The notes beneath the pieces were generated by a model, which did not search any database, was not told the DNA's origin, and saw nothing but the letters and a program-made list of their open reading frames with translations. The translations under genes and the position numbers were made by a program. Below, in pieces: positions 30,712 to 64,000 of a stretch of 64,000 nucleotides of DNA (the first letter of the stretch is position 1; each line of letters starts with the position of its first letter). The stretch is from positions 32,001 through 96,000 of the forward strand of contig CAZPQW010000007.1 in NCBI GenBank assembly GCA_964588985.1. Direction: 5' to 3'. The DNA is from an uncultured Solirubrobacteraceae bacterium. Its GTDB lineage: Bacteria > Actinomycetota > Thermoleophilia > Solirubrobacterales > Solirubrobacteraceae.

Positions 30712-32739
30712 TCAGCCGGCGAGCAGGCCGCGGGCGACGAGCAGGTCCATCACGCGCTCGACCTCCTCCTCGACCGTTTCGCGCGAGCTGCCCAGCACGA
30801 GATCCGGTTCGGAGGGCGCCTCATATGGCGCGCCGACACCCGTCAGGCCCGCCAGCTCGCCCGATCGCGCCCGCGCGTAGAGACCCTTCGGGTCACGCTC
30901 CTCGCACAGCTCCAGCGGCGCGTCCACGTGGATCTCGAGGAAGCCCAGGTCGTCGGCCGAGTGCAGCGCCGCGGCCGCCTCGCGGTCGGCCGCGTAGGGG
31001 CTCACTAGGCTGACGAGCGCGATCGTGCCGGACTCCGCCAGCAGCCTCGCCACATGCGCGGTGCGCCGCACGTTCTCCGTGCGCGCGTGCTCATCGAAGC
31101 CGAGGTCGCCGTTGAGACCATGGCGGAGGTTATCCCCGTCGAGCAGGAACGCCGGCTGACCCGCTTCGATCAGGCGCTCCTCCACGGCCGCCGCGACGGT
31201 CGACTTGCCCGCCCCCGGCAGGCCGGTGAACCACAGCGTCGCGCCGCCGTGTCCGAGCGCGCTCCAGCGCCGCTCGCGCGTCATCCGCGTTCCCTGCCAG
31301 CGCACGTTCGGGCTGCGCTCTGTCTTCGGTTCCGCCCCGCTGCCCTCCACCTCCGTGTCGAGGACCACGCCCGCCGCGACCGTTTCGTTGGTCGCCTCGT
31401 CGATCACGATCAGGCTCCCGGTCACGCGGTTGCGCCGGTAGGAGTCGAACACCAGGGGCGCGCTCAGCTGCAGGTGCACCCGTCCGAGGTCGTTCAGCTC
31501 GAGCGTCGTCGCGCCCTCGTCGCGACGCAGGGTCTCCACGTCGATCTTGTAGCGGACGTCGACCGCGCCGACCATCGCGGTACGCGTGGTGTGCTTGACG
31601 ATGTAGCGCCTGCGCGGGCTCAGCGGGTGCTCGGACATCCAGCACAGCAGGCACTCGAAGCTGTTCGACACCGTCGGCTGGTTCTGGGTACGCACGATCA
31701 CGCTGCCGCGGCCCACGTCGATGTCGTCGGCCAGCCGCAGCGCGACCGACATCGGCGGGAACGCCTCCTCGACCGGCCCGTCGAACGTGTCGATCGAGGC
31801 GATCGTCGTGTGCTGGCCGCTCGGCAGCACGACCACGTCGTCGCCGGGGCGCATCACGCCGCCGGCCACCTGACCAGCGTAGGCGCGGTAGTCCGCGACG
31901 CTCGAGGCGGGCGGACGGATCACCCACTGCACCGGAAAGCGCACGTCGATCAGGTTGCGATCGGAGGCGATGTGCACGTGCTCGAGGTGGTAGAGCAGCG
32001 GCGGACCCTGATACCAGGGCATCGACTCGGAGCGATCGACGACGTTGTCGCCGAGCAGCGCGGAGATCGGGATGAACGTCACGTCCGGCATCTCCAGGCG
32101 CGCCGCGAAGCGGTCGAAGTCCTCAACGATCGCGTCGAAGGTCTGCTCGTCGAAGTCGACCAGGTCCATCTTGTTGACGCACACCACGATGTGCGGGATG
32201 CCCAGCAGCGAGCTGATGAACGCGTGACGCTTGGACTGCGAGATGACGCCCTTGCGCGCGTCGATCAGCACGATCGCCAGGTCCGCGGTCGAGGCGCCGG
32301 TGACCATGTTGCGCGTGTACTGCTCGTGCCCGGGCGTGTCGGCGATGATGAAGCGGCGCTGGGCGGTGGCGAAGTAGCGGTATGCCACATCGATCGTGAT
32401 GCCCTGCTCGCGCTCGGCCCGCAGCCCGTCGGTCAGCAGCGACAGGTCCACGAAGTCGTGGCCCATCCGCTCACTGGCCTGCTCCACGTGCGCCAGCTGG
32501 TCTGAGAGGACCTGCTTGCTGTCGTACAGCAGCCGCCCGATCAGCGTGCTCTTGCCGTCGTCCACCGAGCCGGCGGTGGCGAAGCGCAGCAGGTCCGCGG
32601 GGCGCTCTGTCAGCCGCTTGAACGCCTCAGCCGAGTCGCCCGCCACCGACGCCGCGACCGCCTCGCCGTGATCGGGCCCGTTGCCGTTGCCGTTGACCAG
32701 CACGCCAGAAGAACGGCCGGGGAGGTCCGGAAGTTGCAT
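30712..32739 (-). CDS. cysNC: Bifunctional sulfate adenylyltransferase subunit 1 / adenylyl-sulfate kinase
   Basis: GSVDDGKST, DTPGH and NKMD (GTPase). WFTGLPGAGKST, LDGDN and RDPKGLY (APS kinase). Confidence 0.97.
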   Translation of the reverse strand: MQLPDLPGRSSGVLVNGNGNGPDHGEAVAASVAGDSAEAFKRLTERPADLLRFATAGSVDDGKSTLIGRLLYDSKQVLSDQLAHVEQASERMGHDFVDLSLLTDGLRAEREQGITIDVAYRYFATAQRRFIIADTPGHEQYTRNMVTGASTADLAIVLIDARKGVISQSKRHAFISSLLGIPHIVVCVNKMDLVDFDEQTFDAIVEDFDRFAARLEMPDVTFIPISALLGDNVVDRSESMPWYQGPPLLYHLEHVHIASDRNLIDVRFPVQWVIRPPASSVADYRAYAGQVAGGVMRPGDDVVVLPSGQHTTIASIDTFDGPVEEAFPPMSVALRLADDIDVGRGSVIVRTQNQPTVSNSFECLLCWMSEHPLSPRRRYIVKHTTRTAMVGAVDVRYKIDVETLRRDEGATTLELNDLGRVHLQLSAPLVFDSYRRNRVTGSLIVIDEATNETVAAGVVLDTEVEGSGAEPKTERSPNVRWQGTRMTRERRWSALGHGGATLWFTGLPGAGKSTVAAAVEERLIEAGQPAFLLDGDNLRHGLNGDLGFDEHARTENVRRTAHVARLLAESGTIALVSLVSPYAADREAAAALHSADDLGFLEIHVDAPLELCEERDPKGLYARARSGELAGLTGVGAPYEAPSEPDLVLGSSRETVEEEVERVMDLLVARGLLAG

Positions 32740-33650
32740 CAGAAATACCCCTGCCGCTTGCGATCCTCCATCGCGGCCTCCGTCGCACGGTCATCCGCGC
32801 GCGTCTGCCCGCGCTCGGTGATCTCGGTCGCGGCGATCTCGGTCACGACCTGCTCGAGCGTCGCCGCGTCGGACTCGACCGCGCCGGTGCAGCTCATGTC
32901 GCCGACCGTGCGGTAGCGCACCGTCGCCGTGAAAGCCTCCTCGCCGTCCATCAGCTCGACGAACGGACTGACCGCATACAGCATGCCGTCGCGCTCGAAC
33001 ACCTCGCGATCGTGGGCGAAGTAGATCGACGGGACCTCGAGCCGCTCCTCGGCTATGTACTGCCACACGTCGAGCTCGGTCCAGTTGGAGATCGGGAACA
33101 CACGCGCGTGCTCGCCTTTCTTGAGCCTGCCGTTGTAAAGCCCCCACAGCTCGGGGCGCTGACGCTGAGGCTCCCACTGGCCGAACTCGTCGCGGAAGGA
33201 GAGGATGCGCTCCTTCGCGCGTGCGCGCTCCTCGTCGCGGCGGGCGCCGCCGAAGGCCGCGTCGAAGCCGTGCTCGGTGATCGCGTCGAGCAGCGTGACC
33301 GTCTGCAGCGCGTTGCGCGAGGCTCGCGGCCCGGTCTCCTCGACGACTCGTCCTTCGCGGATCGAGTCCTCGACCGAGGCGACGACGAGGCGCTCTCCGA
33401 GTTCTTCGACCTTGCGGTCGCGGAACTCGATCGCCTCGGGGAAGTTGTGGCCCGTGTCGACATGCATCAACGGGAACGGGAACGGCGCCGGACGAAACGC
33501 CTTCTCCGCCAGACGCAACAGCACGATCGAGTCCTTGCCGCCGCTGAACAGCAGCACCGGCCGCTCGAATTCGGCGGCCACCTCGCGCATCACGTGAATC
33601 GCCTCGGACTCGAGTGTGCGCAGATGCGTTAGGTGGTAGGTGGCGGGCAT
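32739..33650 (-). CDS. cysD: Sulfate adenylyltransferase subunit 2
   Basis: FSGGKDS, HVDTGHNF, GGARRDEE and MEDRKRQGYF. TGATG coupling to cysNC. Confidence 0.97.
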   Translation of the reverse strand: MPATYHLTHLRTLESEAIHVMREVAAEFERPVLLFSGGKDSIVLLRLAEKAFRPAPFPFPLMHVDTGHNFPEAIEFRDRKVEELGERLVVASVEDSIREGRVVEETGPRASRNALQTVTLLDAITEHGFDAAFGGARRDEERARAKERILSFRDEFGQWEPQRQRPELWGLYNGRLKKGEHARVFPISNWTELDVWQYIAEERLEVPSIYFAHDREVFERDGMLYAVSPFVELMDGEEAFTATVRYRTVGDMSCTGAVESDAATLEQVVTEIAATEITERGQTRADDRATEAAMEDRKRQGYF

Positions 33651-33738
33651 CCGTGCTGTGTGGCTGAAGTTAGCCAATGTGGAGCAGAGCTATGTGAACT
33701 TTAGGGTGCGTGTTCGCTTTGTCAAGCCTCGACGCGTT

Positions 33739-34860
33739 CTACGGCACGTTCTCGGCGACCTGTTCGAGCAGCACGGATTCCAGGCGCGCGGCCACCAGCG
33801 GCCATGCAAAGCGCTTCGCGCGCTCGGCTCCGGCAACCCCCATGCGCCGGGCCAGCTCGCGGTCGCTCAACAATCTGGTGAGCGCATCGGCAACCGCCCG
33901 CTCGTCGGTCGGGTCGACCAGCAGGCCCGTCTCGCCGTCGGCCACCGCGTCCAGGGCGCCGGCCACATTGCCTGCCACGACCGGCTTGCCGTAAGCGGCG
34001 GCTTCGAGGTAGACGATCCCGAAGCCCTCGCCGGCACGGCCGTCGGAGGGCAGGCGACTCGGCATCGTAAACACGTCCGTACGACGCAGCCATAGGTCGC
34101 GCTCGTCGTCTGAGACCGTACCGAGGAACCGCACCGCGTCAGTTACGCCCACTGCGCTCGCGAGCCGTTCGAGATCGCCGCGCAGCGGCCCGTCGCCGAT
34201 CACCACCAGCTCCACGTCGGGCACATCGGCGCGCACGCGCGCCAGTGCGCGGATCAGCACGTCGTGCCCCTTGTAGGCGTCCCGCAGGCGCGCGATCGTG
34301 AGCAGAGTCGGACGCTCGGGCCGCTCCGGCGTGGGATCGCTCGGCAGCTCGACCCCCGGCGGGATCAGCCTCAACTCGGCGGGCGAGGCGCCGGTGGCCG
34401 CGATCAGACCGGCTGTGTAGGAGCTGACCGCCACCACCACGTCCGCCCTGCCGGCCGCGAACGCCGCCAGCCTGGGTTTGCCGCCGATCTCGTTCGCGTG
34501 GAAGTACTGCACCGTCCGCGCCCCGAGCGCGCGTCGGATCGCCGCAGCGGCGGGACTCGCGACGATGTGCGCGATCAGGATCACGTCGGGGCGAAAGCGC
34601 CGCGCCTCCGCGAGCGCGGCCAAGTTCAACGCCACCATGCGCGCCGGCCCGAGCTTCTTGCCAACCCTCACCCGTCGTGTGGAGAGCCCGCTGTGCCGAT
34701 CGAAGCTCGCCGCGCCGGGCCCGTCGAGCGCGAGCACCCGCGTCTCGAAGCCCTTCACGCCCGCCGCCAGGCGATAGGTCAAGAGCTGGATGCCTCCTGG
34801 GGCGGGCGGGAAGTCGGGGGTCAGCACGAGCAGCCGGGGTGTGCGCGTTGGCGAGCCCAT
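33739..34860 (-). CDS. GT4 glycosyltransferase
   Basis: DFPPAPGGI, KGHD and EGFGIVYLEA. Confidence 0.93.
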   Translation of the reverse strand: MGSPTRTPRLLVLTPDFPPAPGGIQLLTYRLAAGVKGFETRVLALDGPGAASFDRHSGLSTRRVRVGKKLGPARMVALNLAALAEARRFRPDVILIAHIVASPAAAAIRRALGARTVQYFHANEIGGKPRLAAFAAGRADVVVAVSSYTAGLIAATGASPAELRLIPPGVELPSDPTPERPERPTLLTIARLRDAYKGHDVLIRALARVRADVPDVELVVIGDGPLRGDLERLASAVGVTDAVRFLGTVSDDERDLWLRRTDVFTMPSRLPSDGRAGEGFGIVYLEAAAYGKPVVAGNVAGALDAVADGETGLLVDPTDERAVADALTRLLSDRELARRMGVAGAERAKRFAWPLVAARLESVLLEQVAENVP

Positions 34861-34991: not shown

Positions 34992-37631
34992 ATGCCCGTC
35001 ACGCCCACCCATCGCCGCGCCGTCGCACGGAGAGCCTCGCTCCTTGCCGCCCTCGCGCTCGCGGCTCTGCTCAGCCTGCTCGCCCTGACGGGCGCCCCCG
35101 CCCGCGCCGCCCATGGCGCTCGCGTGAGCGCACACAGTCGCGTCGCGCACAGCCACTGCACGGTCAAGCGCGCCAAGAAGTCCTCCAGGCATGCCCAGGT
35201 GCGGACGTGCACGAGCACCAAGAAGACCAAGCGCGCCGCGAAGAGGCACAGGGGCCTGATCGTGGAAGAGGTCGGTGGCCCGGGCACGCCCGGCGCTCCC
35301 AGCGAACCCTCGACTCCCGTCAAATCCAAAGGGGGCAGGGAATCGGGCAAAGCCGTGGGCAACCTCCCGGTCGAGTCCGGCGAAACGGTCAGCGACCCGA
35401 TCGACCCGCGCTTCCTCACCGACGTCACGTTCGGCACCCGCTCGTTCTGGGTGCAGCCGTGGCGCTCGTACCTCGACACGTGGCCCGGGTCGCGGCTGCT
35501 GGAAGCGGTCGGAATCAACTTCAACGTCGCCCCGCCGCTTGCCGAAGACACCGCGCAGCTGCTGCAGGACGACGGCTTCAAGCTGGCTCGCATCGGGATC
35601 AACTGGTCGGCGCTCAACTACAGCGACCCGACCACGTTCATCCCCGAACGGCTCGCGAACATAGTCACGCGACTGACCGCCCTGCACAAGCACGGGCTGC
35701 GCCCGCTGATCGTGCTCGACGCCTACAGCGGCGCCCCCGCGCCCGCCAAGCACGTGACCCTCGAAACAACCGTCGCGGCGGCCGCGGGTGCGCAGACGGT
35801 GACCCTCAGCGCCGCGAGCGCGGCGGAAGTCGTCCCCGGCAAGACCGGCTTCAACAGCCTCGCCTTCGGCGGAGCGCCGGACATCCTGATCAGCTCGCTG
35901 AGCGGACACGTCGCCACCCTCTCGAGGCCGCTGAAGAGCGCCCTCGCCGCGGGCTCGCACCCCGGCACGACTCTGCTGTACGCGCCGTTCGCCGCTCCCA
36001 CACTTCCCAACGGACAGTCCAATCCCGCCTTCCAGGCGACGCTCAACGGCTGGCTGAACTACGTATCGCAGGTCTGCAAAGAGGCCGCGAGCATCGTCGG
36101 GCCCGAAGGCTATGACCTCGAGGTGTGGAACGAGCTCAGCTTCAGCTCCCAGTTCCTGAACGCCGAAAACTACTACTTGCCCTCAGGCGAAGAACACGGC
36201 GAATCGGCCTACAACCCCGGCAACGAAAACGGCCTCGAAGCGAACACCAGCACCGAAGCGAGCCCCAGCGCCGAAGCGGGCTCGGGCCCGGAAACCGAGC
36301 AGGGAACCGAAGCCGAAAACGGCCCTGAAACCGAAGGCGAACTGGAAGCGGAACCGACCAGCGAAGGCGCCGGCGCGGCTGTTCGCGCGCTCACCGCGAC
36401 GCGCACCGAAGTGCCGCACAAGCGGGTCGTGAACAAGGAAATCCGCAAAGCGCTGCTCGCCGCGACGGTCGCCTTCGTGCGCAACCCCTCGAGCGGCGTC
36501 CCCGCGGGCGTCGGCATCACAGACGGCTTCGCCAGCCAGACGCCCTTCCCCTCCGGCGCGGAAGCTCCGCTGGGACTGACGGCGCTGAGCAAGCACCCGT
36601 ACGTCGGCGTGAAGAGCTACCCCACCGAATACCGCGAACGCCACATCGCGCCGCTCGACGCGCTCGGCGCGCGCGACACGAGCTCGCGAGAAAGCTTCGC
36701 GCCGCTGTTCGCACCCGCTTACCAGTCGCTGCTGCCCGAGTACACGCTCACCGCCACCTCAACGGAGACGCTGATTCGCGACATCGCGCCGATCACCACC
36801 AACGTCTACCACTACCCGCACGGGCGGAGCGTGGGGCCCGCGGGCGGCCAGCCGCTGCAGAAGTGGATCACCGAGTACAACCTCGCGATCGGCAAGGCCA
36901 AGGTCATGGGACCCGACGGAGTCACGCCGCAGACCGGCCCGTCGGCGACGCTCACCGCGGCCGACAGGCAGCACTTCCAGGCCAAGGTCGCGCTGCGCAG
37001 CCTCGTCTCGATGGTCGCCAAGGGCGAGTCTCGCGAGTACTTCTTCGCAGCCGCGCCCGGCACCCTGAGCCTGATCGACCCGGGCTTCTTCACCGCCGCG
37101 GAAGCAGAACCGAGCGTCTACCCCGGCGACGCCTCGGGTGGAGAGACGATGACAGGGATGCACAACATGCTCACCCGCTTCAACGGCCCCGGACCCGCCG
37201 GCGGCAACGCCAACCAGCTCACGCTCCTCTCGATCACCCAGAACGGCAACCACGCACAGTTCACGGGAGACGGCACGAGCGCCCACCCCAGCCTCTACGA
37301 CCGCTCCGTTCTCGCCGTCTTCCCCTTCCAGACCAGCCCCACCACCTACGTCATCCCCGTCTACGTGATGACGCGCGACCTGCTCACCCTCTACGAACCG
37401 TCCGCACCCGGTAGCGACGTCCACCGCTTCGACCTCCCCGACGAGACCTTCCACATCACGCTCGGCAACCTCCCCAGCACCGCCACGCCACCCACCGTCT
37501 CGAGCTACGACCCGCTGCGCGACGAAACCACCACAGCTCACCTCACGAGCCGCACCGGCAACCAGGCGACGTTCGAACTCACCGCCACCGACTACCCCCG
37601 GCTGCTGACGCTCGAATACAGCGGCGAATAG
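34992..37631 (+). CDS. Large secreted protein, putative clan GH-A glycoside hydrolase, paralog A
   Basis: Arg-rich signal peptide. DLEVWNE (acid/base-like), SKHPY and WITEY (nucleophile-like). GGAG RBS. Confidence 0.65.
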   Translation: MPVTPTHRRAVARRASLLAALALAALLSLLALTGAPARAAHGARVSAHSRVAHSHCTVKRAKKSSRHAQVRTCTSTKKTKRAAKRHRGLIVEEVGGPGTPGAPSEPSTPVKSKGGRESGKAVGNLPVESGETVSDPIDPRFLTDVTFGTRSFWVQPWRSYLDTWPGSRLLEAVGINFNVAPPLAEDTAQLLQDDGFKLARIGINWSALNYSDPTTFIPERLANIVTRLTALHKHGLRPLIVLDAYSGAPAPAKHVTLETTVAAAAGAQTVTLSAASAAEVVPGKTGFNSLAFGGAPDILISSLSGHVATLSRPLKSALAAGSHPGTTLLYAPFAAPTLPNGQSNPAFQATLNGWLNYVSQVCKEAASIVGPEGYDLEVWNELSFSSQFLNAENYYLPSGEEHGESAYNPGNENGLEANTSTEASPSAEAGSGPETEQGTEAENGPETEGELEAEPTSEGAGAAVRALTATRTEVPHKRVVNKEIRKALLAATVAFVRNPSSGVPAGVGITDGFASQTPFPSGAEAPLGLTALSKHPYVGVKSYPTEYRERHIAPLDALGARDTSSRESFAPLFAPAYQSLLPEYTLTATSTETLIRDIAPITTNVYHYPHGRSVGPAGGQPLQKWITEYNLAIGKAKVMGPDGVTPQTGPSATLTAADRQHFQAKVALRSLVSMVAKGESREYFFAAAPGTLSLIDPGFFTAAEAEPSVYPGDASGGETMTGMHNMLTRFNGPGPAGGNANQLTLLSITQNGNHAQFTGDGTSAHPSLYDRSVLAVFPFQTSPTTYVIPVYVMTRDLLTLYEPSAPGSDVHRFDLPDETFHITLGNLPSTATPPTVSSYDPLRDETTTAHLTSRTGNQATFELTATDYPRLLTLEYSGE
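37416..37631 (+). repeat. 216-bp near-identical direct repeat, copy 1 (copy 2 at 39801-40016)
   Basis: Manual alignment gives about 12 mismatches in 216 nt, and the first 61 nt are identical. Confidence 0.9.
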
Positions 37632-54308: not shown

Positions 54309-56125
54309 CACGGCAACGGGCTCTCGCCGGCGCCGGAGGCGACCAGCGAGGCGGAGCGGTAGTAGTCGTTGCCCTTCTGCAACAGCTCGCGCGTGTCGAA
54401 CGCCGCCAGGCGCCCGTCGATGACGACCATCACCCGGTCGCAGATGTCCAGCGTGGACATGCGGTGCGCGATGATGAACAGCGTCAGTTCGTCCTTGAGG
54501 GCGCTCAGCGACTCCTGGATCAGTCGCTCGGAGTGCGGGTCCAGGGCGCTCGTGGGCTCGTCGAGGATCAGCACCGCCGGGCGGGCGGCGAGCGCGCGGG
54601 CGAGGCACAGCCGCTGCTGCTGCCCGCCTGAAACAGCGTCGGCGCGCGGGCCGACGATCGTGTCATAGCCCTCGGGCCACGCGGTGATGTCGTCGTGGAT
54701 GCGAGCGAGCCTGGCCGCGCGCTCGACGTCCTCGGGGCCGACGTCGCGGAAGTACCTGATGTTGTCCGCCACGGAGGCGTGCAGCAGGCGCGGCTCCTGC
54801 GGCACGTAGGCCACGAGCCGGTGCCAGTCCGCGGAGCTGATCTGCCCGGCGCCTTTGCCGTTCACGAGGTAGCGTCCGCCCGTCGGCACGCGCAGCTGCA
54901 GCAAGATCTGGATGAGCGTGGACTTGCCCGCGCCCGAGGGGCCGATCACGCCGATCGTCTCGCCGCCGCGCACCTCGAAGCTCATCTCCTTGAGGACCGG
55001 CCGACCCTCCCGGTAGGCGAAGGACACATCGTCGAAGGCCACCGTCTGGACTCCTTCGACCGGCTCCGAGCCCCAGCTGGGCGCGCTTTCTTCATAGCGC
55101 CGGGTGGCTTCCTGCAGGCGCTCCACGAAGGGCAGCGACTGGCGCAGAGATTGAAACGCTCCCTGGATCTGCTGCCCGTATGTTCCCGCCCGCACCAGCA
55201 GCAGCACGACCGCCCCCAGCGACGCCGCGTGTCCGCTACCGGCGAGCGATATGACCGCGAGCCCGGCGATCAGCAGCACATACATGAGGCTCTGATAGAG
55301 ATTCGGAGTCAGGCGGCCGACCAGCTGCGAGCTGAAGAACAGCGCCTTCGATTTCGCCACGAACTCGTCGATGCGCTCACGCTGGGCCTCCTCCACGCCA
55401 AAGACGTGCGTCTCCTCGGCCACGCGGATCGCCTCGCCGATCCCGCCCGCGTATTCCATCTGCGACGCCGACAGCGCGCGGGCGCGCTTCACCCCCATCC
55501 GGTTCAGCGGGCGCAGCGCGGCGAACAACGCAACCGCGGTCACGAGCACGACCCCCGCCGCGAGCGGGTTCTGGTAGAGCGCGGTTCCCATCAGGACCGT
55601 GAAGGTGAACAGCGCCGTGAGCAGCGTCGTGGCCTGGAGCACGCCTCCGGTCGCCTGGATGACCTGGCTCGTCATCGTCTCCTGCAGGTGTCCCTCGCGG
55701 TCGCGCGACTGCACCTCCCAGGAGGCGCGTGTGAACGCATGGAAGAGTTTCGTGCGCAGGCCGGACTGCACTTCGGCCGCGATGCGCGCCGGCAGGACGG
55801 AGGCCGGGATCTGCAGAGCGAGCCGCGCCAGCGCGAACGCACCCGCCACGATGAACAGCGTGCCGAGCGAGTGGTGGCCGCTCAGCGGCCCGAGCCTGAC
55901 GTCGGTCGTCTTGGCCCCTTTGGCGATCGTCGTGCCGACCTCCGCCAGGAGGATCAGGATGCTCGCTTCGGCGAGCCCGGAGAGGATCGAGCTGACCCCC
56001 AGTCCCACGACCCAGCCGCGGCGGTGGCCGATCAGCGCCTGCAGACGCTCGCGCGTGGACATCTGTCCGGCCAGCGGCCCCCCCGGCGACGCCCCGCCGG
56101 CCGACGGGTCGGCTGGAGCGCTCAC
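54308..56125 (-). CDS. ABC transporter, fused permease/ATPase (MsbA/PglK-like, putative lipid-linked glycan flippase)
   Basis: N-terminal TMD, GPSGAGKST, VSGGQQQR, LILDE and AHR. Start 56125 (GTGA coupling) or 56062. Confidence 0.9.
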   Translation of the reverse strand: MSAPADPSAGGASPGGPLAGQMSTRERLQALIGHRRGWVVGLGVSSILSGLAEASILILLAEVGTTIAKGAKTTDVRLGPLSGHHSLGTLFIVAGAFALARLALQIPASVLPARIAAEVQSGLRTKLFHAFTRASWEVQSRDREGHLQETMTSQVIQATGGVLQATTLLTALFTFTVLMGTALYQNPLAAGVVLVTAVALFAALRPLNRMGVKRARALSASQMEYAGGIGEAIRVAEETHVFGVEEAQRERIDEFVAKSKALFFSSQLVGRLTPNLYQSLMYVLLIAGLAVISLAGSGHAASLGAVVLLLVRAGTYGQQIQGAFQSLRQSLPFVERLQEATRRYEESAPSWGSEPVEGVQTVAFDDVSFAYREGRPVLKEMSFEVRGGETIGVIGPSGAGKSTLIQILLQLRVPTGGRYLVNGKGAGQISSADWHRLVAYVPQEPRLLHASVADNIRYFRDVGPEDVERAARLARIHDDITAWPEGYDTIVGPRADAVSGGQQQRLCLARALAARPAVLILDEPTSALDPHSERLIQESLSALKDELTLFIIAHRMSTLDICDRVMVVIDGRLAAFDTRELLQKGNDYYRSASLVASGAGESPLP

Positions 56126-57693
56126 GCGCTCACCACTCCTCCGTGCTCGTCCGCGCGGCGGCCGGGCCCAAGGAACCAGTAGGCGGCGGTGCCCATCGCG
56201 AACCAGAAGTACGAGCCGAACGCCGCGCCCGCCGAGACCGGACCGTCGAAGCCCATGAGGATGAACGCGATGAACGGACCGAACATGCCGGCAAGCAGGA
56301 TGCGCACGTCGATGTTCTTGACCCGCGGAAGGCCCGCCACGGCCAGTCCGATGACCATCAGCGCAAGCCCGCTCCACAGCACCAGCCCGGGCAGGCCCAG
56401 TTCGTCTACGAGGAAGTTGAACTGCGTCTCCGCGCTGAAGCCGTGGCCTTCGAGCGCGATCTTGCTGCGGCCTCCGAAGGCCGAAGCGGCGCCGGCGGTC
56501 CCCAGGCCGAGGCCGAACGGCGCGGCGGCGATCACGTGCGGCACCTGGCTGAGACTGACTTCCTTGTAGTTCGTCGAGGTGCCCACCACCTTCGTCGGCG
56601 CGATGCTTTCATAGCGCGAGAAGACGCCGTTGCCCAAGCTCGAGACGAGCACCGCGCCCAGCGGGAGCGCGAGGAGCCCGACCATCGCCAGCGCACCCAG
56701 CGGCGCGCTCACGCGCCGACCGGCGCTGAGCGAGAGCATCACAAACGCCACCACCGCGATCACCGCCCCGACGGCCGACAATCGCGCCACCGCCGTCGCC
56801 ACGGCGAGGATAGCGCCGAGACAGAACGCCAGAGCGATCCAGCGCCGCCGACGCTTCGCGGTGGCGAGCAGCGCGAGCGCCCCGGTCAGCGCGAGCACGC
56901 CCATGCCTCCGCCGAAGCCGGCCTCCGAGCCGAGGCCGGTAGGACGCACGTGGGCCACGCCTTCGCTCACGTACTGGCGGCCGGTGATGCCCCCGGACCC
57001 CGGGGCGGAGCCGTGGACCACTTCCGCGTAGCCGGGGCCCCAGCTCGCCAGCTGGCTGGGGCTCAAGCGCGTCTGGTAGGTGCTGACGATCCCGTTGGCC
57101 AGCGCGATCACCCCGAGGATCACGAACAGCTTGCGAAGGCGCGCTCTGGAGCGCATCAGCGCGTAACCGAAGAAGAAGAACGGCACCCACTCGAGCTGCT
57201 GCCTGAAGCCGCCGATGACCTTGACGATGCCCTGGGTGTTGGGGTTGAACGCCTCCACGACCACGAGCGCCACGAACGCGAAGACCCATCCGGAGAGCGG
57301 CGGGAGCCGCACGCGCCGCCCACTCTCGCGCAGGCGCACGAGCGCCCCGATCGCCACGGCGCCGATCAGGACGTCGCGGACGGCGGACACGGCCTGGTTG
57401 TAGACGAGCAGCTTCAGCGGCCCCTCGATCAAGCCGACATACAGGGCCAGCACGGCCACAGTCACCTCCAGCCGCGCGTAGCTCGCGAGCGCGATCACGG
57501 CCGTCAGCCCGAGCATCCCACCGAGGACCAGCGGGTAGTTCGGCTTCGGCATCGCCACGGTCACGGCCAGCGCGACCGCCAACGCCAGGAGGCCGGCGAG
57601 AACGCTGAGCATCAGCTCCCTGCGTCGGACGCTAAGCCTCGCCGGGTGGGTCCCCCCGAGCGGGCTCGACAGGTGGGGGTATGGCGTGCTCAT
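56122..57693 (-). CDS. Wzy polymerase / O-antigen ligase-like membrane protein
   Basis: About 12 TM helices, RPTG loop, PFGLGLG and ELGLPG pattern. Directly follows the wzc-like gene. Confidence 0.72.
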   Translation of the reverse strand: MSTPYPHLSSPLGGTHPARLSVRRRELMLSVLAGLLALAVALAVTVAMPKPNYPLVLGGMLGLTAVIALASYARLEVTVAVLALYVGLIEGPLKLLVYNQAVSAVRDVLIGAVAIGALVRLRESGRRVRLPPLSGWVFAFVALVVVEAFNPNTQGIVKVIGGFRQQLEWVPFFFFGYALMRSRARLRKLFVILGVIALANGIVSTYQTRLSPSQLASWGPGYAEVVHGSAPGSGGITGRQYVSEGVAHVRPTGLGSEAGFGGGMGVLALTGALALLATAKRRRRWIALAFCLGAILAVATAVARLSAVGAVIAVVAFVMLSLSAGRRVSAPLGALAMVGLLALPLGAVLVSSLGNGVFSRYESIAPTKVVGTSTNYKEVSLSQVPHVIAAAPFGLGLGTAGAASAFGGRSKIALEGHGFSAETQFNFLVDELGLPGLVLWSGLALMVIGLAVAGLPRVKNIDVRILLAGMFGPFIAFILMGFDGPVSAGAAFGSYFWFAMGTAAYWFLGPGRRADEHGGVVSA

Positions 57694-59333
57694 CGCCGCA
57701 GCGAGCCAAACCGACCCTTCCCGCCACCCTGCGGCGAGAAGCCGAGCCGGCTGAGTTCCTTCGGAGCTACGTCGTTTGCCACCACGCCCAGCACCGGCGC
57801 GCTCGGGGAGCGCTCCAGCAGCTCCACGAGCCGCTGCGCGGAGGCCTGGCGCGTGTGCCCGACCCGCGCGACGAGCACGATCCCGTCGACGAGGTGAAGC
57901 AGCGGCATCGCGTCGCTCACCTCCAACGGCGAGGGCACGTCGAGCAGGACCGAGTCGAAGTCCTCCGCCAGCGAGCGCAGGAGCTCCTCGCTCGCGGGCG
58001 ACGCCAGCAGCGCGGGCGGGTTGGACGCCGGTCCGCCGGCCACCAGCACGGAAGCCGAGCCGGTGCTGCTGCGCGCCTGCACGAGCGTGCTCACGCCTCC
58101 GGCGCCCGCGTCGCTCGAGCCCGCCGGCGCCTCGGTCTCGGCGGATGCGACCCGCTGCATCGCCGCACCGAACGCCACGCTCCCCGCGAGCACGTCGGCG
58201 AGGCCGTTGGAGGCGTTGACGTCGAGCAGCTTTGCCAGCACCGGCCGGCGAAGGTCGGCCTCGACCACAGCGACGCGCTCGCCCGAGTCGCGAGCGACGA
58301 GCGCAAGACCGGAGACCACCGTGGACTTGCCGTCAGCAGCGTCCGGACTGAGCACGAGCAGCACCCCGGGGCGCCTGCCGGCGGAGCGCGCGAGCACGTC
58401 GCCGAGCTGCAGCGAGGTGTGTGCGCGACGCAACGGCTCGAGCAGCGGCCCCGACAGCGTCGGGCGCCCGTCGCGATGGATGATCGGGCGTTTGACCTTC
58501 GGCAGAGCGGCCAGGGTCGAGGTGTGAAACGCCGTCTCGATGTCGGTCAACGAGCGCAGACGGCGATCGAGACGACCGACCGAGTAGGCGGCGATCGAGG
58601 CCAGCAGCACGCCGAGGACGAACCCGAAGATCGCGTTTTTTTTCGGCATCGGCGAGAGCAGTTCCGCCTTCTTCGCGGGACTGGTCTGCGCGGCGCCCGC
58701 GACCGACAGATCCGATTCGAACTGGCTGATCCGGCTCACGAGCGTCGCGGCCTGCAGCGTGGCGGAGCTGGTGGTTGGGGCCGCTCCTTTGCCGCGAGCG
58801 GCGGCTTTCGAGGCGCTCGTCTCGGCTTCCAGCCTGCGGAGCTGCTTGCGCGTCGAGGCGATCGCCGCGCGGACCTCCTTCTGATACGTGTTCCGTGTTC
58901 GTCTGATGTACACCTGCGCGTAGGTGTTGGCGAGCTTGGCCGCCGCCTTGGCGTTGTGCGCTTCGGCGGTGATGGTCACGAAGTCGGTGCCCGCCGCAGC
59001 CTTCGCGTGGGCTTTACCCTTGAGCGCGGCGCGCGCGTTTTCCTTGCGCAGCAGAGCGTGAACAGCTTCGCTCACCACACTCGAGTTGACGATCGCGGCC
59101 TGGTCGTCGATCGCGCGTTCGTTCAGTTTTCTTTCGCCGGGCGCATTGGACAGCAGCGACTGTTCTTCGGAACCATTCGCAAGGTAGATCTGAGTACTGG
59201 ACTGGTACAGGCTCGGCTTTCGCTTGTAGTACGCGTAGGCCAATCCGGCGACGAGGATTCCCACCAGCAGGATCAGCCACTTGCGCCGCCATATGGGAGC
59301 GAAAATGGCGCTAGCGTCGGTCGTCTCGTTCAT
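57690..59333 (-). CDS. Wzz/Wzc-like polysaccharide co-polymerase with P-loop domain
   Basis: IWRRKWLI TM1, SP.PK TM2, DGKST, EADLRRP and LLDVP. Confidence 0.88.
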   Translation of the reverse strand: MNETTDASAIFAPIWRRKWLILLVGILVAGLAYAYYKRKPSLYQSSTQIYLANGSEEQSLLSNAPGERKLNERAIDDQAAIVNSSVVSEAVHALLRKENARAALKGKAHAKAAAGTDFVTITAEAHNAKAAAKLANTYAQVYIRRTRNTYQKEVRAAIASTRKQLRRLEAETSASKAAARGKGAAPTTSSATLQAATLVSRISQFESDLSVAGAAQTSPAKKAELLSPMPKKNAIFGFVLGVLLASIAAYSVGRLDRRLRSLTDIETAFHTSTLAALPKVKRPIIHRDGRPTLSGPLLEPLRRAHTSLQLGDVLARSAGRRPGVLLVLSPDAADGKSTVVSGLALVARDSGERVAVVEADLRRPVLAKLLDVNASNGLADVLAGSVAFGAAMQRVASAETEAPAGSSDAGAGGVSTLVQARSSTGSASVLVAGGPASNPPALLASPASEELLRSLAEDFDSVLLDVPSPLEVSDAMPLLHLVDGIVLVARVGHTRQASAQRLVELLERSPSAPVLGVVANDVAPKELSRLGFSPQGGGKGRFGSLRR

Positions 59334-59646: not shown

Positions 59647-60765
59647 ATGAGCAACCGTGTCAAGCGTCGACTGCTGGTTGTCAGTCACCCGGCCGTCGTG
59701 AGCGTCAACCAGGAGGTCTACCGCGAGCTGGCGCACAGGGGATGGGATGTGAAGATCGTGCTACCGAGTCGCTGGGGTCACTCCTATTCCACAGGAGCGG
59801 TGCTCCCCAAGCCACTGCCCGGAATGGAGGCCGCGCTGCTGCCGACCCGCGTCGCGTTTCGCGGGCGTCCGCAACGCCACTTCTACCTCACCAGCTGCCG
59901 CGCCCTGTGCACGCGACTGCGTCCCGACGTCGCGTTCGTGGAGGCCGAGCCGTACTCGCTGTCGGCGGCGCAATGGGGTCGAACGTTCACAAAGCTACGC
60001 ATACCGTTCGGGGTTCAGTGCTACGAGAACATCGATCGCGGCCTTCCCGCTCCGGTGCGTCGCCTGCGCTCGCGGGTCCTGCGCGACGCGGCCTTCGTGG
60101 CCGCCCGATCGGATACGGCGGGGCGCCTCGCGCGCGCATGGGGCGCACGCGGTGAGATCGAGCTCGCCCCGCCCGCGGTCCCGAACTGGGAGACCGCGCC
60201 CGAGACCTCGGAGCACCCTTTCACGGTCGGATTCGCGGGTCGACTGATCGAGAGCAAGGGCCTCGTCGACCTGCTCGAGGCCGTGCGCGGACTGGACGCT
60301 CCGGTGGAGCTGCTGCTGCTCGGCGACGGCGAGCTGCGCGAGCGCCTCGACGGACAGCCGATTCCCGGATCGCGGGTGCGCGTGGTCAACGGCCTGACCC
60401 ACGAGCAGATGGCGGGCGCATACGCCAAGCTGGACGTGCTCGTGCTGCCCTCGCACACGACCGCCACGTGGAAGGAGCAGTTCGGGCGGGTGATCGTGGA
60501 GGCGCTGTGGTGCGGCGTGCCGGTGGTGGGCTCGAACTCGGGCGAGATCCCCTGGCTGATCGGGCTGACCGAAGGGGGACTGGTCTTCCCCGAGGGCGAC
60601 CGCGAGGCGCTGCGCACGCATCTGCTCACCCTGCGCGAATCGCCCGCCCTGCGCGAGCAGCTCGCGAGCGCCGGCCGCGCGACGGTCGAGAGGCTGTTCT
60701 CGGTGGCTTCCGCCACCGACCCGCTGGAGCGCATGCTCGTGCACGCCGCGGAGTCGCGTGGCTAG
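59647..60765 (+). CDS. GT4 glycosyltransferase
   Basis: FAGRLIESKG and WKEQFGRVIVEA. GAGGAGG RBS. Confidence 0.92.
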   Translation: MSNRVKRRLLVVSHPAVVSVNQEVYRELAHRGWDVKIVLPSRWGHSYSTGAVLPKPLPGMEAALLPTRVAFRGRPQRHFYLTSCRALCTRLRPDVAFVEAEPYSLSAAQWGRTFTKLRIPFGVQCYENIDRGLPAPVRRLRSRVLRDAAFVAARSDTAGRLARAWGARGEIELAPPAVPNWETAPETSEHPFTVGFAGRLIESKGLVDLLEAVRGLDAPVELLLLGDGELRERLDGQPIPGSRVRVVNGLTHEQMAGAYAKLDVLVLPSHTTATWKEQFGRVIVEALWCGVPVVGSNSGEIPWLIGLTEGGLVFPEGDREALRTHLLTLRESPALREQLASAGRATVERLFSVASATDPLERMLVHAAESRG

Positions 60766-63035
60766 ACGACGGCCTGCCGGGCGAGGCGCTCGTACAACGC
60801 CTCGTGCTTGGCCACCGCGTCGTCCCAGGTAAACGCGAGCGCCGAGCTGCGAGCGGCCGCGCCGAGCCGCCTCCTCAACTCAGGGTCGGCGGCGAGCTCG
60901 TTCAGGCGAGCGGCGACGCCGGCGGGCTCGACCTCGATCAGGAAGCCATTCTCGCCGTCGCGAATCAGCTCACGCACCCCGTTGACGGGCGTCGCGAGCA
61001 CCGGCAGCCCGCTGGCCGCGGCCTCGAAGGTGACCAGCGAGAACGTCTCGTAGCTCGACGGCAGCACGAACGCGTCGGCCAGCTTGTAGACAGCGTGGAC
61101 GTCGCTCACCACGCCCAGCCAGTGGATCGCGCCGCCCACCCCGAGCGAGTCCGCCAGCTCCTGATAGGAGTCCCTGTCCCCCGCCCCCGCCACCGCGAGA
61201 TCCCACTCGGGCGCGAGCGCGAGCGCTTCGATCGCGCAGCGAAGTCCCTTGCGTCCCCACTCGCCGCCCACGAACGCGGCCACGAGGCGCTCCGCGGGGA
61301 TGCCCAGCTTCGCACGCGCGGCGGCCCGCGACTCGCCGTCGCCGACCGCGGGCGAGAACGAGTCCGTATCCACGCCGTTGTGAATCGTCACCACGTTGCC
61401 GGCTATCTGTGGATAGTGCGCGCGCATCTCCTCGGCCAACCCCTCCGAGACGCACACGTAGGTGGCGCTGGGGTTCACACGAACGCACAGCCGCTCGGCT
61501 GCCCGCTTGACGAGCCCGCCGAGAGCCAGGTTGCATCTCTGCAGGAGCGACAGACGCGTGGGCGCCGTCCGCCGGTGCGCCGCGTGACAGAAGTGAATCG
61601 CGACCGTGTCCACTGGATTCAGGACGATCGCGCCGGTGGCCTGCACGACTCCGTCCCGCCACCTCCACACGGCCAGCGAGCCGGCCAGCATGAACCACGC
61701 GTAGAACAGGAGAAACGGGCGCCGAGGGCCGGGGACGCGATGGAATCTCACACCCGAGCCGGCGGGCAGCACGCACGTGCGGGCGATCACCGTGACCGCG
61801 TGTCCGCGGCGTCGCAGGCCCATCACGAGCTCGACCAGCTGGCGCTCCATGCCGCCGACGGCGCCGATGTCGTGGGCGACGATCGTCACCGGGCAGGGCG
61901 CCGCCGTGTTCGGCGAGGCGGTCGCACCGTCGTTCACCAGCTGCGCGAGCGCTTCCATTTCAGAGAAGAAGCGCGTACGCATAGCAATATCGGTGAATTG
62001 CCGTGTGAATCGTTCGTGACCGGCTCGGGCCATATCGCGACGCCGCCGCGGCGAAGTCAGCAGTGTCTCGAGCGCGTCCGCCAGCGCCTCGGGCTCGCCC
62101 GAGCGTGCGAGCACGCCGGTGCGCTGGTCCTCGACGATCTCCGCCGGTCCGCCACGGTTCACGGCCAGCACAGCCACCTCGCGTGCCATGCCCTCCAGCA
62201 GGACGATGCCGAACGGCTCCGGATCGGATGCGTTGACGAGGATGTCCATGCGGTCGATGTACGGCCCCGCGTCCGGCACCTGGCCCGTCATCGTCACCGA
62301 GCCCTCGAGGCCCAGGGCGCTGACGAGCCCGGGCAGCGCGCGGGCGTAGTCGGGTGAGAGGCCGTGCGCGTCGCCTCCCACGATCAGCGTGTGCGTCGGA
62401 TGACCCCGCTCGCGCAGGAGAGCCTGTGCGCGGAGGAGGCGATCCTGCCCCTTCCAGGGCTGCAGGCGTCCGACTATGCCGATCACAGGCACCCCATCCG
62501 GGATCTCGAGCGGCGGGGTCTCCGCGCTCGGCTCAGGGACACGCGCTCCGGGGGCCACGACGAAGGTCTGCCGTGACGGCCACATCCGCGCCTGCGCCTC
62601 GGCGGAGGCTCGCGAGGAAGCACCGACGGCGACCGCCGGCAGCACTGTGGCGCAGCGGTCGAGCCAGTGCCGCCTGGGTATGTCATGCTGCCACCACACC
62701 AGACGATCGCCCATGCCAGCGAGAACCGCGGCGGGCGCAGAGTACAGGTGGGCCTTGCCCATCCAGTTGAGGATCAGGTCCGGCTGACGTGCGCGCATGA
62801 TGCGCGCCAGGCGTGCGACGGTCTGCACAGCGCGGTGGAGTTGGCGTAGCTGACCCGCCGGCAGGACCTCAACATCGAAGCCCGCGTCGCTCAGATCCGC
62901 CGGCCACCGACCGGGCTCCAAAAACACCAGCTCAAACTCATGTCCTGCCCCCTGCGCTCCATCGAGCACCATCTGCAGCATCTCCTCGGCGCCGCCGAGG
63001 CGCTCTCCCCACGGCACCGTTATGAGCAGACGCAT
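60762..63035 (-). CDS. Tandem double GT4 glycosyltransferase
   Basis: Two complete GT4 units: GGAE...EPFGIVLLE and GGME...ETFSLVTFE. Confidence 0.92.
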   Translation of the reverse strand: MRLLITVPWGERLGGAEEMLQMVLDGAQGAGHEFELVFLEPGRWPADLSDAGFDVEVLPAGQLRQLHRAVQTVARLARIMRARQPDLILNWMGKAHLYSAPAAVLAGMGDRLVWWQHDIPRRHWLDRCATVLPAVAVGASSRASAEAQARMWPSRQTFVVAPGARVPEPSAETPPLEIPDGVPVIGIVGRLQPWKGQDRLLRAQALLRERGHPTHTLIVGGDAHGLSPDYARALPGLVSALGLEGSVTMTGQVPDAGPYIDRMDILVNASDPEPFGIVLLEGMAREVAVLAVNRGGPAEIVEDQRTGVLARSGEPEALADALETLLTSPRRRRDMARAGHERFTRQFTDIAMRTRFFSEMEALAQLVNDGATASPNTAAPCPVTIVAHDIGAVGGMERQLVELVMGLRRRGHAVTVIARTCVLPAGSGVRFHRVPGPRRPFLLFYAWFMLAGSLAVWRWRDGVVQATGAIVLNPVDTVAIHFCHAAHRRTAPTRLSLLQRCNLALGGLVKRAAERLCVRVNPSATYVCVSEGLAEEMRAHYPQIAGNVVTIHNGVDTDSFSPAVGDGESRAAARAKLGIPAERLVAAFVGGEWGRKGLRCAIEALALAPEWDLAVAGAGDRDSYQELADSLGVGGAIHWLGVVSDVHAVYKLADAFVLPSSYETFSLVTFEAAASGLPVLATPVNGVRELIRDGENGFLIEVEPAGVAARLNELAADPELRRRLGAAARSSALAFTWDDAVAKHEALYERLARQAVV

Positions 63036-63178
63036 CGAATATCCCCAGCAATTATCGGGGTTCCGGCGTCAGCAGGGCGCCCGTCATCGATCGCGGCGCG
63101 CGGGTGTCCATGATCACCGCACGAGGTTATCCGAGAAATAACCACAAAACCGCTCGCGCGCGCTATTGTCAAGTCGTC

Positions 63179-64000
63179 ATGTTTCGTTTCGCACAAGACA
63201 ATGACCCCGAGTTCACGCTGACCCACCGCCCCGCGCCGACGCCAGGCCTGGCGTCGAAGAGCGTGGCCCTCGCGCACGACTACCTGCTGGTGATGCGCGG
63301 AGCGGAGCGGACGTTCGCGGCGATCGCCGAGCTGTTCCCGCAGGCGCCGATCTTCACGCTGCTCTACGACGAGCCGGGGACGGGCGGGCGCTTCGCCGGT
63401 CGCTCGATCGCTACCTCTCCGTTGCAGCGCCTGGGCGTCAGCCAGGCGACGTTCAGACGCCTGCTGCCGCTCTATCCGATCGCGGTCGAGCGGCTGCACG
63501 TGCCGTCCTGCGACGTGGTGCTCAGCAGCAGCAGCGCTTTCGCCCACGGGGTGCGCGCGCCCGAGGGCGCGGTTCACGTCTGCTACTGCTACACCCCGTT
63601 TCGCTACGCCTGGTACGAGGAGGATCGCGCCGTGGCGGAGACCTCGCCCGCGCTCAGGCGACTGCTGCGCAGCCAGCTGCGCCGGGTGCGCCGCTGGGAT
63701 CTCGCCGCGAGCGGTCGGGTGGACGCCTATATCGCCATCTCCCAGCTCAGCCGCGAACGAATCAAGCGCTACTACGGCCGCGACGCCGCCGTCGTACACC
63801 CGCCCGTGGAGACCCACCGCTTCTCCGAGGGCAACCCAGGCGACGCGCTGCTGATCGTCTCCGAGCTGGTCCGGCACAAGCGCCTGCACATCGCCCTCGA
63901 GGCCGCGCGTCGCGCGCACGCGCCGGTTCGCGTCGTGGGCAGCGGCCCCGATCACCTCGCGCTCGAAGAGGCCTTCCCCGAGGCGGAGTTCCTGGGACGC
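63179..64000 (+). CDS. GT4 glycosyltransferase (3' truncated by window edge)
   Basis: Manual translation MFRFAQ...VALAHDYLLVMRGAER...CYCYTPFRYAW...HPPV. Open to the end of the window. Confidence 0.88.
   Translation, partial: MFRFAQDNDPEFTLTHRPAPTPGLASKSVALAHDYLLVMRGAERTFAAIAELFPQAPIFTLLYDEPGTGGRFAGRSIATSPLQRLGVSQATFRRLLPLYPIAVERLHVPSCDVVLSSSSAFAHGVRAPEGAVHVCYCYTPFRYAWYEEDRAVAETSPALRRLLRSQLRRVRRWDLAASGRVDAYIAISQLSRERIKRYYGRDAAVVHPPVETHRFSEGNPGDALLIVSELVRHKRLHIALEAARRAHAPVRVVGSGPDHLALEEAFPEAEFLGR

Follow-up and report, generated by a model that had tools for sequence, protein, structure and literature searches.

The stretch of DNA analysed here, called the window throughout, comprises 64,000 nucleotides from an uncultured Solirubrobacteraceae bacterium of the class Thermoleophilia (G000:C7:32001-96000; genome of 3.4 Mb, 68.3% GC, 95.9% complete), and from position 30712 to its end it carries a locus in which five tandem sulfotransferase (ST) genes stand among genes of surface-polysaccharide type. 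It is fairly probable, as judged from gene families, gene order and gene fusions, that in this locus lipid-linked units built by GT4 glycosyltransferases would be sulfated in the cytoplasm, flipped by an ATP-binding cassette (ABC) transporter and polymerised by Wzy/Wzc. The product is likely a sulfated cell-surface heteropolysaccharide, either a capsule or a released exopolysaccharide (EPS), though it is unproven. The first-pass annotation of the window had proposed a Wzy/Wzc surface-polysaccharide locus with STs acting on the glycan, and this part of the proposal gains from co-occurrence, synteny and from ABC::ST and GT4::ST fusions in related genomes, whereas its wording 'glycosaminoglycan-like' is given up below.

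Gene families were assigned with Pfam and NCBIfam profile searches and their cut-offs, which bear out the gene inventory drawn up earlier (cysD, cysNC, five STs, wzc, ABC, GT4s and methyltransferases), including its eight GT4 genes with nine domains and its four S-adenosylmethionine (SAM) methyltransferases, two of them FkbM. The genes on which the argument turns are the following:

30712..32703, minus strand: cysNC, fusion of ATP sulfurylase large subunit with adenosine 5′-phosphosulfate (APS) kinase (PRK05506, 917 bits, cut-off 715)
32739..33650, minus strand: cysD, ATP sulfurylase small subunit, second copy (CysD models over cut-off)
47136..48278, minus strand: GT4d (Pfam)
48271..49440, minus strand: GT4e, overlapping ST5 (Pfam)
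49424..50416, minus strand: sulfotransferase ST5 (over PF13469 and PF00685 cut-offs)
50400..51434, minus strand: sulfotransferase ST4, start possibly GTG at 51314 (over PF13469 and PF00685 cut-offs)
51418..52377, minus strand: sulfotransferase ST3 (over PF13469 and PF00685 cut-offs)
52370..53356, minus strand: sulfotransferase ST2 (over PF13469 and PF00685 cut-offs)
53346..54308, minus strand: sulfotransferase ST1, its start overlapping the ABC stop (TGATG); slot fused to ABC in relatives (over PF13469 and PF00685 cut-offs)
54308..56062, minus strand: ABC half-transporter, membrane domain and ATPase (PF00664 + PF00005), proposed Wzx-replacing flippase
56122..57693, minus strand: polytopic membrane protein of Wzy/WaaL fold, proposed polymerase (Wzy_C matches of orthologues, fold match)
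57690..59333, minus strand: Wzc-like co-polymerase, Wzz and P-loop kinase-like domains (Pfam), no C-terminal tyrosine cluster

The minus-strand run wzc-wzy-ABC-ST1..ST5-GT4e-GT4d is uninterrupted, with successive junctions from wzc to GT4d of −4, +59, −1, −11, −8, −17, −17, −17 and −8 bp, the 59-bp gap after wzy being the only non-overlapping one.

This arrangement is shared by relatives. Core order (pGT..GT4h-GT4g-GT4f/y-wzc-wzy-ABC-ST(n)-GT4e/d-GT4c) is kept in most loci of the genus that were compared; G250 is rearranged, and G013 was covered only in part. Of the 36 same-genus genomes, 20 have the ST clade, each giving between 4 and 14 matches, frameshift fragments among them; of 24 genomes from other families, one has it. 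A profile of the Wzy clade matched 19 of the 20 ST-positive genomes (the missed one is 63% complete), none of the 16 ST-negative ones and none of the 24 outside; since the profile was built from loci of the genus, the outside misses mean only that no protein of this clade is there. The relatives share ancestry, and such co-occurrence counts are not independent samples. A fusion protein used as query, which can match through the ABC or the ST clade, found 127 of 200 genus genomes. Beyond the genus, ST-clade matches were absent from all 22 genomes of other genera of the same family, and among 300 genomes of the class several close ST copies were found only in the one same-genus genome, 29 genomes of other families holding one or two ST relatives of 35-45% identity (at most seven candidates were scored per genome, and 17 of the 29 and the same-genus genome were then inspected). 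Among the matches listed, ST copies of family f7 (single, about 40% identity) lie beside dnaK-clpB or unrelated genes, and ST-bearing polysaccharide loci are found in G060, G153, G225, G234 and G240, with Wzx in G060, G234 and G240. Glycan loci that include STs are thus found across the class, and ST expansion with an ABC transporter is a trait of the genus.

Gene fusions, taken together with synteny, connect the STs with the glycan. When homologues of the ABC membrane domain were ranked, ten among the best 120 carried an ST domain as well (909-1004 residues in total), and 33 of 46 long ST1 homologues consist of an ABC followed by an ST, the ST domain being whole in 30 of the 33 and closest to ST1 in 27 of those 30. 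The linkers, in the first ten fusions, are of 26-116 residues and low complexity. In a FastTree of 128 ABC domains 25 fused forms fall at 11 places, and all-fused clades of 6, 5, 4 and 2 members have support of at least 0.98; eight of the 33 fusions were removed by a length and motif filter, and because the tree is rooted at its midpoint and its unfused set is biased to the window's neighbours, gain and loss of the fusion are indistinguishable on it. At the syntenic position the fusion reads wzc-wzy-ABC::ST in G019, G406, G424, G466, G467 and G492, three of which apparently overlap fused proteins already counted. Two GT4::ST fusions, P0289 and P0290, were also found, one of them belonging to a cluster of three. 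Mere sequencing error is ruled out for the four multi-member clades, with singletons still open to it, and P0271, P0294, P0302, P0304 and P0305 were set aside as error-like records. The predicted fusion proteins show that an ST would be tolerated when tethered to the exporter's cytoplasmic end, which does not imply a checkpoint, and they suggest that sugar units may be sulfated just before export. A predicted complex of two ABC ATPase domains with ST1 scored 0.02 (mark 0.32) and gave no answer either way.

Sulfation would draw on 3′-phosphoadenosine 5′-phosphosulfate (PAPS) made by CysD and CysNC. As had been noticed at the outset, neither cysH nor a sulfite reductase gene lies beside the window's cysDNC; both are on contig C8, together with a second cysD (its product 83% identical to the window's CysD) and a kinase-less cysN. 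The C8 CysH carries CC and CxxC motifs, which we take to be the APS-reductase pattern. As assimilation through a CysH of that type should need no PAPS, the window's CysNC would serve sulfation, and with the second cysD-cysN on C8 the window's CysDNC is read as non-assimilatory. It is also the only APS kinase found in the genome and must therefore supply the five ST genes outside the locus as well. A long frame consistent with fused CysNC was seen in 16 of the 20 genus genomes that have the ST clade and in 2 of the 16 that lack it, and in two more ST-positive genomes the locus holds cysNC copies with broken frames. Among the 17 loci traced to their downstream boundary (G004 and G406 were traced less far), cysNC lies inside the locus in ten: G000, G005, G006, G012, G013, G015, G028, G030, G250 and G424. 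The possibility that cysDNC is the genome's only assimilatory copy is countered by the second cysD-cysN on C8. Unlinked cysNC orthologues are 76-87% identical to the window's CysN and 55-61% to that of C8, with no cysH or sulfite reductase near them within the 12-20 kb covered. Linkage of cysNC to the locus is common, not obligatory.

The locus contains no Wzx (PF13440/PF01943), the genome's matches lying only on C10, C15, C21 and C25, and no other protein with at least six membrane segments was seen in the core of 24 regions scanned by hydropathy on our own gene calls, which leave some uncalled gaps. A second polysaccharide locus, on C1 (L105-L106, G000:C1:181241-203663), likewise holds wzc and an ABC gene (61% identical) and no Wzx; it has two Wzy_C-like proteins (one under cut-off), WecG-type and GT4/GT2 transferases and a lower GC content at third codon positions. 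PglK and Wzk are ABC half-transporters that flip undecaprenyl-pyrophosphate-linked glycans, and Wzk is able to flip O16 units in E. coli (PMC4990322). Given that Wzx is missing from both loci and that this precedent exists, the simplest reading is that the ABC half-transporter would substitute for Wzx as flippase; lacking Wzx, the locus would work like a Wzx/Wzy-dependent pathway and not be a canonical member of it. The HepA model is the only one to match all 13 ABC membrane domains compared (best E 1.5e-12, far under cut-off), and the PglK model matches one of the 13, far below its cut-off. Scores for the whole protein single out no glycan flippase family, PDB searches with it are dominated by P-glycoprotein ATPase domains, and the membrane-domain profile gave no matches.

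The Wzy-like protein of the window has 11 predicted membrane segments and no Pfam or NCBIfam match of its own; Wzy_C is matched by 6 of its 16 orthologues. Its structural model (pLDDT 61.8) aligns with WaaL (Z 17.8, rmsd 4.2, 339 residues) and with SEDS proteins (Z 10-13), and on this model the product of 56122-57693 is Wzy/WaaL-like. The 'wzy' label given earlier can be kept in that sense. A polymerase role would follow from the overlapping Wzc gene (−4 bp). Of the Walker A, A' and B motifs of the Wzc-like protein, GKST and DVPS are present; at A' most matched orthologues have EAD[LF]R, with E in place of D, and one has DADLR; scores are under the NCBIfam cut-offs for bacterial tyrosine (BY) kinases. 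There are no tyrosines in its last 45 residues and 0-3 in 18 other cluster members (some of them fragments); co-polymerases without a tyrosine tail do function in polymer pathways (PMC12004946). Its C-terminal tail is rich in Arg and Gly.

ST1-ST5 are 53-63% identical to one another. A sixth ST of the same clade, ST0 (5940..6938, minus strand), lies 24 kb from the locus, and K19, E42, R112 and S120 are invariant in all six paralogues and align to motifs of heparan sulfate 3-O-sulfotransferase (3-OST-1). We take them to be the lysine of the 5′-phosphosulfate-binding (5′-PSB) motif, the catalytic glutamate and the Arg/Ser of the 3′-phosphate-binding (3′-PB) motif. The paralogues diverge in the loop after KEP, and no membrane segment is predicted in ST1-ST5. 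In an ST tree of 105 sequences (a quick version without bootstrap) 17 copies from the first position, ST1 included, fall in one group of 20 members (support 84), the ST0 type forms a separate cross-genome clade of 11 members (support 99), and the middle copies have been gained and lost, the window's ST2 and ST3 falling in one group. Concerted evolution of the array is ruled out, as paralogues do not cluster by genome. Array copy number runs from about 3 to 6 across the loci compared, and dN/dS is 0.12-0.29 in all ten ST orthologue pairs from relatives (a simple counting method on GC-biased codons). This fits ST1-ST5 being old, maintained paralogues, some of which would have fixed roles; a five-position code is unproven.

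Some further observations concern the STs. Over 49424-53356 (minus strand) the conserved C-terminal WGYD/E codons of an ST hold the ATG of the next gene (TAT GAx), which gives −11 or −17 overlaps at four junctions; newly arrived tandem copies would be translationally coupled through this overlap. The five ST genes outside the locus are ST0, a Stf0-like gene, two that adjoin peptide-synthetase-like genes, and a further gene on C1. The Stf0-like ST adjoins a sulfatase-like gene (G000:C1:83720-85923, minus strand), both labels being our assumption from motifs. ST0 adjoins a thiolase-like gene; several relatives have between one and three STs at this position. In five related loci (L037:12793-13659, L071:5627-6172, L072:9052-9756, L073:9029-9772, L103:7186-8055) a gene of the PIG-L de-N-acetylase family lies directly beside an ST, possibly as a split N-deacetylase/N-sulfotransferase pair; none was seen in the window. 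Many related loci (L050:7092-8069, L075:13483-14421 and kin) carry one to three extra STs of two other subfamilies, and other additions are an asparagine-synthase-like amidotransferase or a second ABC copy.

The proposed pathway would start with a priming transferase, recognised by its family, that puts a sugar-1-phosphate on a polyprenyl carrier, after which up to nine GT4 domains, likewise assigned by family, would elongate the lipid-linked unit in the cytoplasm. PAPS would be provided by CysD/CysNC, again by family, with assimilation presumably kept apart through the APS-reductase-type CysH. The five soluble STs, whose PAPS-binding motifs are present, would then sulfate the lipid-linked unit at the cytoplasmic face, an acceptor to which the fusions and synteny point; ST1 would work at the flippase, and each paralogue might, less securely, have a position of its own. 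Some methyltransferases, a variable set, may attach O-methyl groups. An ABC homodimer would flip the unit, by analogy with PglK/Wzk, Wzy would polymerise it under Wzc control, and secreted clan GH-A proteins, as accessories, could trim or release the polymer. One may go further and ask whether this is a hybrid route with sulfation coupled to export, in which ST1, tethered or fused to the ATPase domain of a PglK-like flippase, adds a sulfate that licenses the unit for flipping, the other STs writing a strain-variable code of at least four positions. This extension is put forward tentatively, and we would rather expect it to fail.

Several observations weigh against the pathway as drawn. Nearly every genome of the genus (34 of 36) has an APS kinase, the cysDNC cassette also occurs in two ST-negative genomes, and cysNC lies outside the locus in 7 of the 17 traced (G009, G019, G022, G026, G466, G467 and G492); the locus's 'own PAPS supply' of the first-pass annotation is to be read accordingly, as a non-assimilatory CysDNC that is shared with the rest of the genome and often unlinked. 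The ABC membrane domain scores far under both the HepA and PglK cut-offs, and the unlinked Wzx genes of the genome could serve in trans. At least six genomes have ABC and ST in one frame with a single stop between them, single fused records could reflect sequence errors, and unbroken ABC::ST fusions are a small minority of the 127 matching genus genomes, among matches listed; since the two genes abut, the fusion is cheap to reach and may be neutral. Finally, an Aeromonas salmonicida O-antigen cluster has an ST gene and yet its product bears no sulfate (PMC4483657).

This last case is the precedent for supposing that the polysaccharide is made and left unsulfated, the STs being inactive, silent or binding scaffolds. 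With PAPS-binding and catalytic residues intact in all window copies, purifying selection on the STs and a non-assimilatory PAPS synthase nearby, this is extremely improbable. The acceptor of the STs might instead be some small molecule or lipid that has no connection with the Wzy product and is exported by the ABC, the genes being no more than neighbours: relatives of about 40% identity in another family stand outside any polysaccharide core, by dnaK-clpB or unrelated genes (in the loci listed), ST0 is 24 kb away by its thiolase-like gene, other STs of the genome have non-EPS settings, and whole-protein ABC scores point to no glycan flippase. We hold this to be very unlikely in view of the GT4::ST fusions, the co-occurrence of ST and wzy (19/20 versus 0/16), the overlap of ST genes with the ABC and GT4e genes, and the fact that the nearest characterised ST relatives act on glycans.

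A different end of the pathway is conceivable, in which the ABC flips a finished sulfated oligosaccharide and a WaaL-type ligase attaches this short glycan once to protein, lipid or wall, on the pattern of Wzk/WaaL or of protein glycosylation. The fold cannot separate polymerase from ligase and its best structural match is WaaL, in Pfam the Wzy_C family is that of O-antigen ligases, the glycans flipped by ABCs of PglK/Wzk type are finished ones (PMC4990322), secreted proteins flank the locus and Wzc has no tyrosine cluster. Such a ligase is, all the same, unlikely, because the Wzc co-polymerase gene overlaps wzy and adjoins it in the compared loci, co-polymerases devoid of a tyrosine tail act in polymer pathways (PMC12004946), and GH-A-like hydrolases are present in many loci. 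If the Wzy/Wzc pathway is granted, the five STs could still be for the most part redundant, or serve gene dosage, and modify just one or two positions, so that the polymer would carry no more sulfate than synechan does with its 2 sulfates per 8 sugars, a reading that differs from the preferred one only in 'multiply'. The variation of copy number, the turnover of middle copies, the grouping of ST2 with ST3 and the dispensability of one of the two synechan STs (PMC8205485) speak for it; the modest identity of the paralogues, their failure to group by genome, their different post-KEP loops and the purifying selection on each in relatives speak for separate roles. Redundancy is thus a serious possibility, on balance somewhat doubtful. 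The reading retained remains that of units sulfated in the cytoplasm before an ABC flippase and Wzy/Wzc.

The remaining genes of the locus, and those of its continuation on the same contig, are as follows:

33739..34860, minus strand: GT4a (Pfam)
34992..37631, plus strand: clan GH-A-like protein 1, secreted, with a hydrophobic segment at the N-terminus and the glutamates of WNE and TEY (fold inferred from paralogue)
37659..40016, plus strand: clan GH-A-like protein 2, probable lipoprotein (LTGC after a hydrophobic stretch), 52-70% identity to protein 1
40102..41076, minus strand: low-GC secreted-type protein, start uncertain (no Pfam match; 3 paralogues elsewhere in the genome)
41367..41527, plus strand: relic of an FkbM1 duplicate, internal deletion of about 670 bp
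41559..42740, plus strand: GT4b (Pfam)
42737..43558, plus strand: SAM methyltransferase MT1 (Pfam), orthologue not seen in the other compared loci
43581..44249, minus strand: SAM methyltransferase MT2 (Pfam)
44382..45182, plus strand: FkbM methyltransferase 1 (Pfam/NCBIfam)
45179..45883, minus strand: FkbM methyltransferase 2 (Pfam/NCBIfam), the most widely kept methyltransferase of the locus
45932..47152, plus strand: GT4c, core (Pfam, synteny)
59647..60765, plus strand: GT4f (Pfam)
60762..63035, minus strand: double-domain GT4, GT4g (Pfam), two separate genes in most relatives
63104..64000, plus strand: GT4h, core (Pfam), extending 357 bases beyond the window edge
L001:2311-3123, minus strand, beyond the window: fifth SAM methyltransferase (Pfam)
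L001:3160-4512, minus strand, beyond the window: priming glycosylphosphotransferase (TIGR03025, 347 bits, cut-off 296)
L001:4856-5794, plus strand, beyond the window: TauE/SafE-family membrane gene, near the locus in many relatives

The priming glycosyltransferase, for which the first-pass annotation had pointed to the adjacent DNA, is thus found 1.2 kb past the window edge, and the locus extends about 2.5 kb beyond it. What had been described as one contiguous block is so in its core run from wzc to GT4d; as a whole it includes several convergent gene pairs, and hence is not a single operon, as well as a probably unrelated insert, the FkbM relic and the extension past the window. In 33739-64000 outside the core run, strands alternate as convergent, often overlapping pairs, several of which are kept in relatives. 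In the relic, stretches of 88 bp (67% identity) and 51 bp (86% identity) correspond to the ends of 44368-45172, and a frame of about 46 codons is still open. The gene at 40102-41076 (minus strand) has a GC content of about 0.62 and three paralogues of 38-39% identity elsewhere in the genome, and is probably an unrelated insert. Recent horizontal transfer of the locus is ruled out by its GC content (0.67-0.75 when the insert at 39-42 kb is set aside, the genome's value being 0.683) and conserved flanks. The priming-transferase end is flanked at L001:6309-9340 (minus strand) by a tandem pair of genes for proteins resembling periplasmic binding proteins (PBP_like_2), and by other large secreted proteins; many relatives have a similar gene there. 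In the window, 10828-18577 (minus strand) is a run of hydrophobic membrane-type proteins with one GT87 match (17039-18577), possibly genes for extracellular glycosylation.

Neither GH-like protein has a Pfam or NCBIfam match. The WNE and TE glutamates are kept in 11 of 12 orthologues, the model (pLDDT 54.5, of low confidence) aligns with GH5 enzymes (Z 11.6, rmsd 3.8, 178 residues), atlas neighbours are GH39/GH5/GH42 at 0.86-0.87, and 916 relatives occur among cluster representatives. Foldseek matches to pyruvate kinase (TM 0.14) were judged meaningless, and a PDB sequence search with protein 2 returned signal-region noise only. The earlier description as two secreted GH-like proteins rests on the low-confidence GH5-like match and the atlas neighbours, with no Pfam family behind it. 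The pair is accessory: it accompanies many loci and was not seen in G005, G028 and G030. 'O-methylated' is weakened, methyltransferase genes being present (five in the full locus here) in a set that differs from genome to genome. As for 'glycosaminoglycan-like', which would imply a backbone of hexosamine-uronic acid disaccharides with a GT2-type synthase and UDP-glucose dehydrogenase behind it, the locus has no GT2 and no UDP-glucose dehydrogenase (PF00984) and all its glycosyltransferases are GT4, so that the term is unsupported; five PF00984 matches elsewhere in the genome could supply uronic acids. Genes for rmlC, LCP and the inositol-monophosphatase/CysQ family are likewise absent from the locus and present elsewhere. 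With UDP-glucose dehydrogenase, rmlC and LCP outside it, the locus gives no guide to sugar composition or to anchoring in the wall.

What could such a locus offer? Across the genus some 100 sequences of soluble STs, alike in their motifs and diverse in their acceptor loops, are candidate biocatalysts, and a natural Wzy/Wzc pathway seemingly with an ABC flippase, with the fusion, opens the coupling of modification to flipping to tests in E. coli. Should the product be real, soils would be an unrecognised source of sulfate-ester polysaccharide; if the coupling or code reading is true, a large uncultured soil genus would have a major part in producing densely sulfated polysaccharide on land. We presume the host lineage to be non-sporulating, unlike Actinoplanes. 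Two papers (PMC8205485, PMC13390465) portray sulfated polysaccharides of bacteria as in essence a cyanobacterial matter, and in the passages covered of a 2024 review (PMC11625862) few bacterial glycan STs are named as characterised. No paper on the locus of this lineage or on an ABC::ST fusion was found in open-access main text; the supplementary ST-cluster survey of the synechan paper could include cases of Wzy with ABC. The novelty first supposed for a high-GC actinobacterium is weakened, since a comparable predicted actinomycete cluster has been in print since 2026 (PMC13390465).

That cluster, wps-1 of Actinoplanes missouriensis, is likewise from Actinomycetota and resembles the present locus in its Wzy and Wzz-type regulator, in its STs (one of them of the heparan sulfate kind), in having both a SAM methyltransferase and a glycoside hydrolase, and in a neighbouring gene of the sulfate adenylyltransferase/APS kinase family, deletion of which is severe; its sulfated product is predicted, from genetics without chemistry (PMC13390465). 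It has Wzx and two STs of different families (PMC13390465), whereas here there are an ABC, five paralogues of one clade and the fusions of relatives. The synechan locus xss of Synechocystis PCC 6803 shares a Wzy-dependent EPS, eight glycosyltransferases and clustered STs, and its sulfate was demonstrated chemically; it differs in Wzx, two STs and a diderm host with an outer-membrane export protein, and the accessible part of the report names no PAPS genes (PMC8205485). In the capsule loci of Vibrio sp. KMM 8419 and Cobetia marina KMM 1449 PAPS genes and STs also stand in a polysaccharide locus, a combination called a hallmark of sulfated polysaccharide synthesis, the Vibrio cysDNC is a second copy, and capsule sulfate was verified by NMR (PMC11641403, PMC11766843); unlike here, these marine Gammaproteobacteria use KpsMT-type export of the finished chain and no capsule Wzy, with at most three STs named in the accessible text. 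In Pontiella the cluster is putative (PMC7356697). PglK, Wzk and HepA are likewise single-gene ABC half-transporters (PMC4990322; HepA by NCBIfam model only), whereas the present ABC is natively paired with Wzy and Wzc, is ST-fused in relatives and scores far under the family cut-offs. The STs share with the heparan sulfate 3-O-sulfotransferase/NDST domain (PDB 3rnl) the GxxKxGT 5′-PSB motif, the KEP/EV-x-FF glutamate and the 3′-PB R-x-P-x(5)-S, and differ from the animal enzymes in being soluble cytoplasmic proteins of weak similarity (E about 1e-9 to 1e-5). The basic concept of STs, PAPS genes and EPS genes together is already known; ST expansion, ABC in place of Wzx and a recurrent flippase::ST fusion are what make this locus a variant, and the genus-wide expansion and the recurrent fusion, both invisible in the window by itself, are its most distinctive features.

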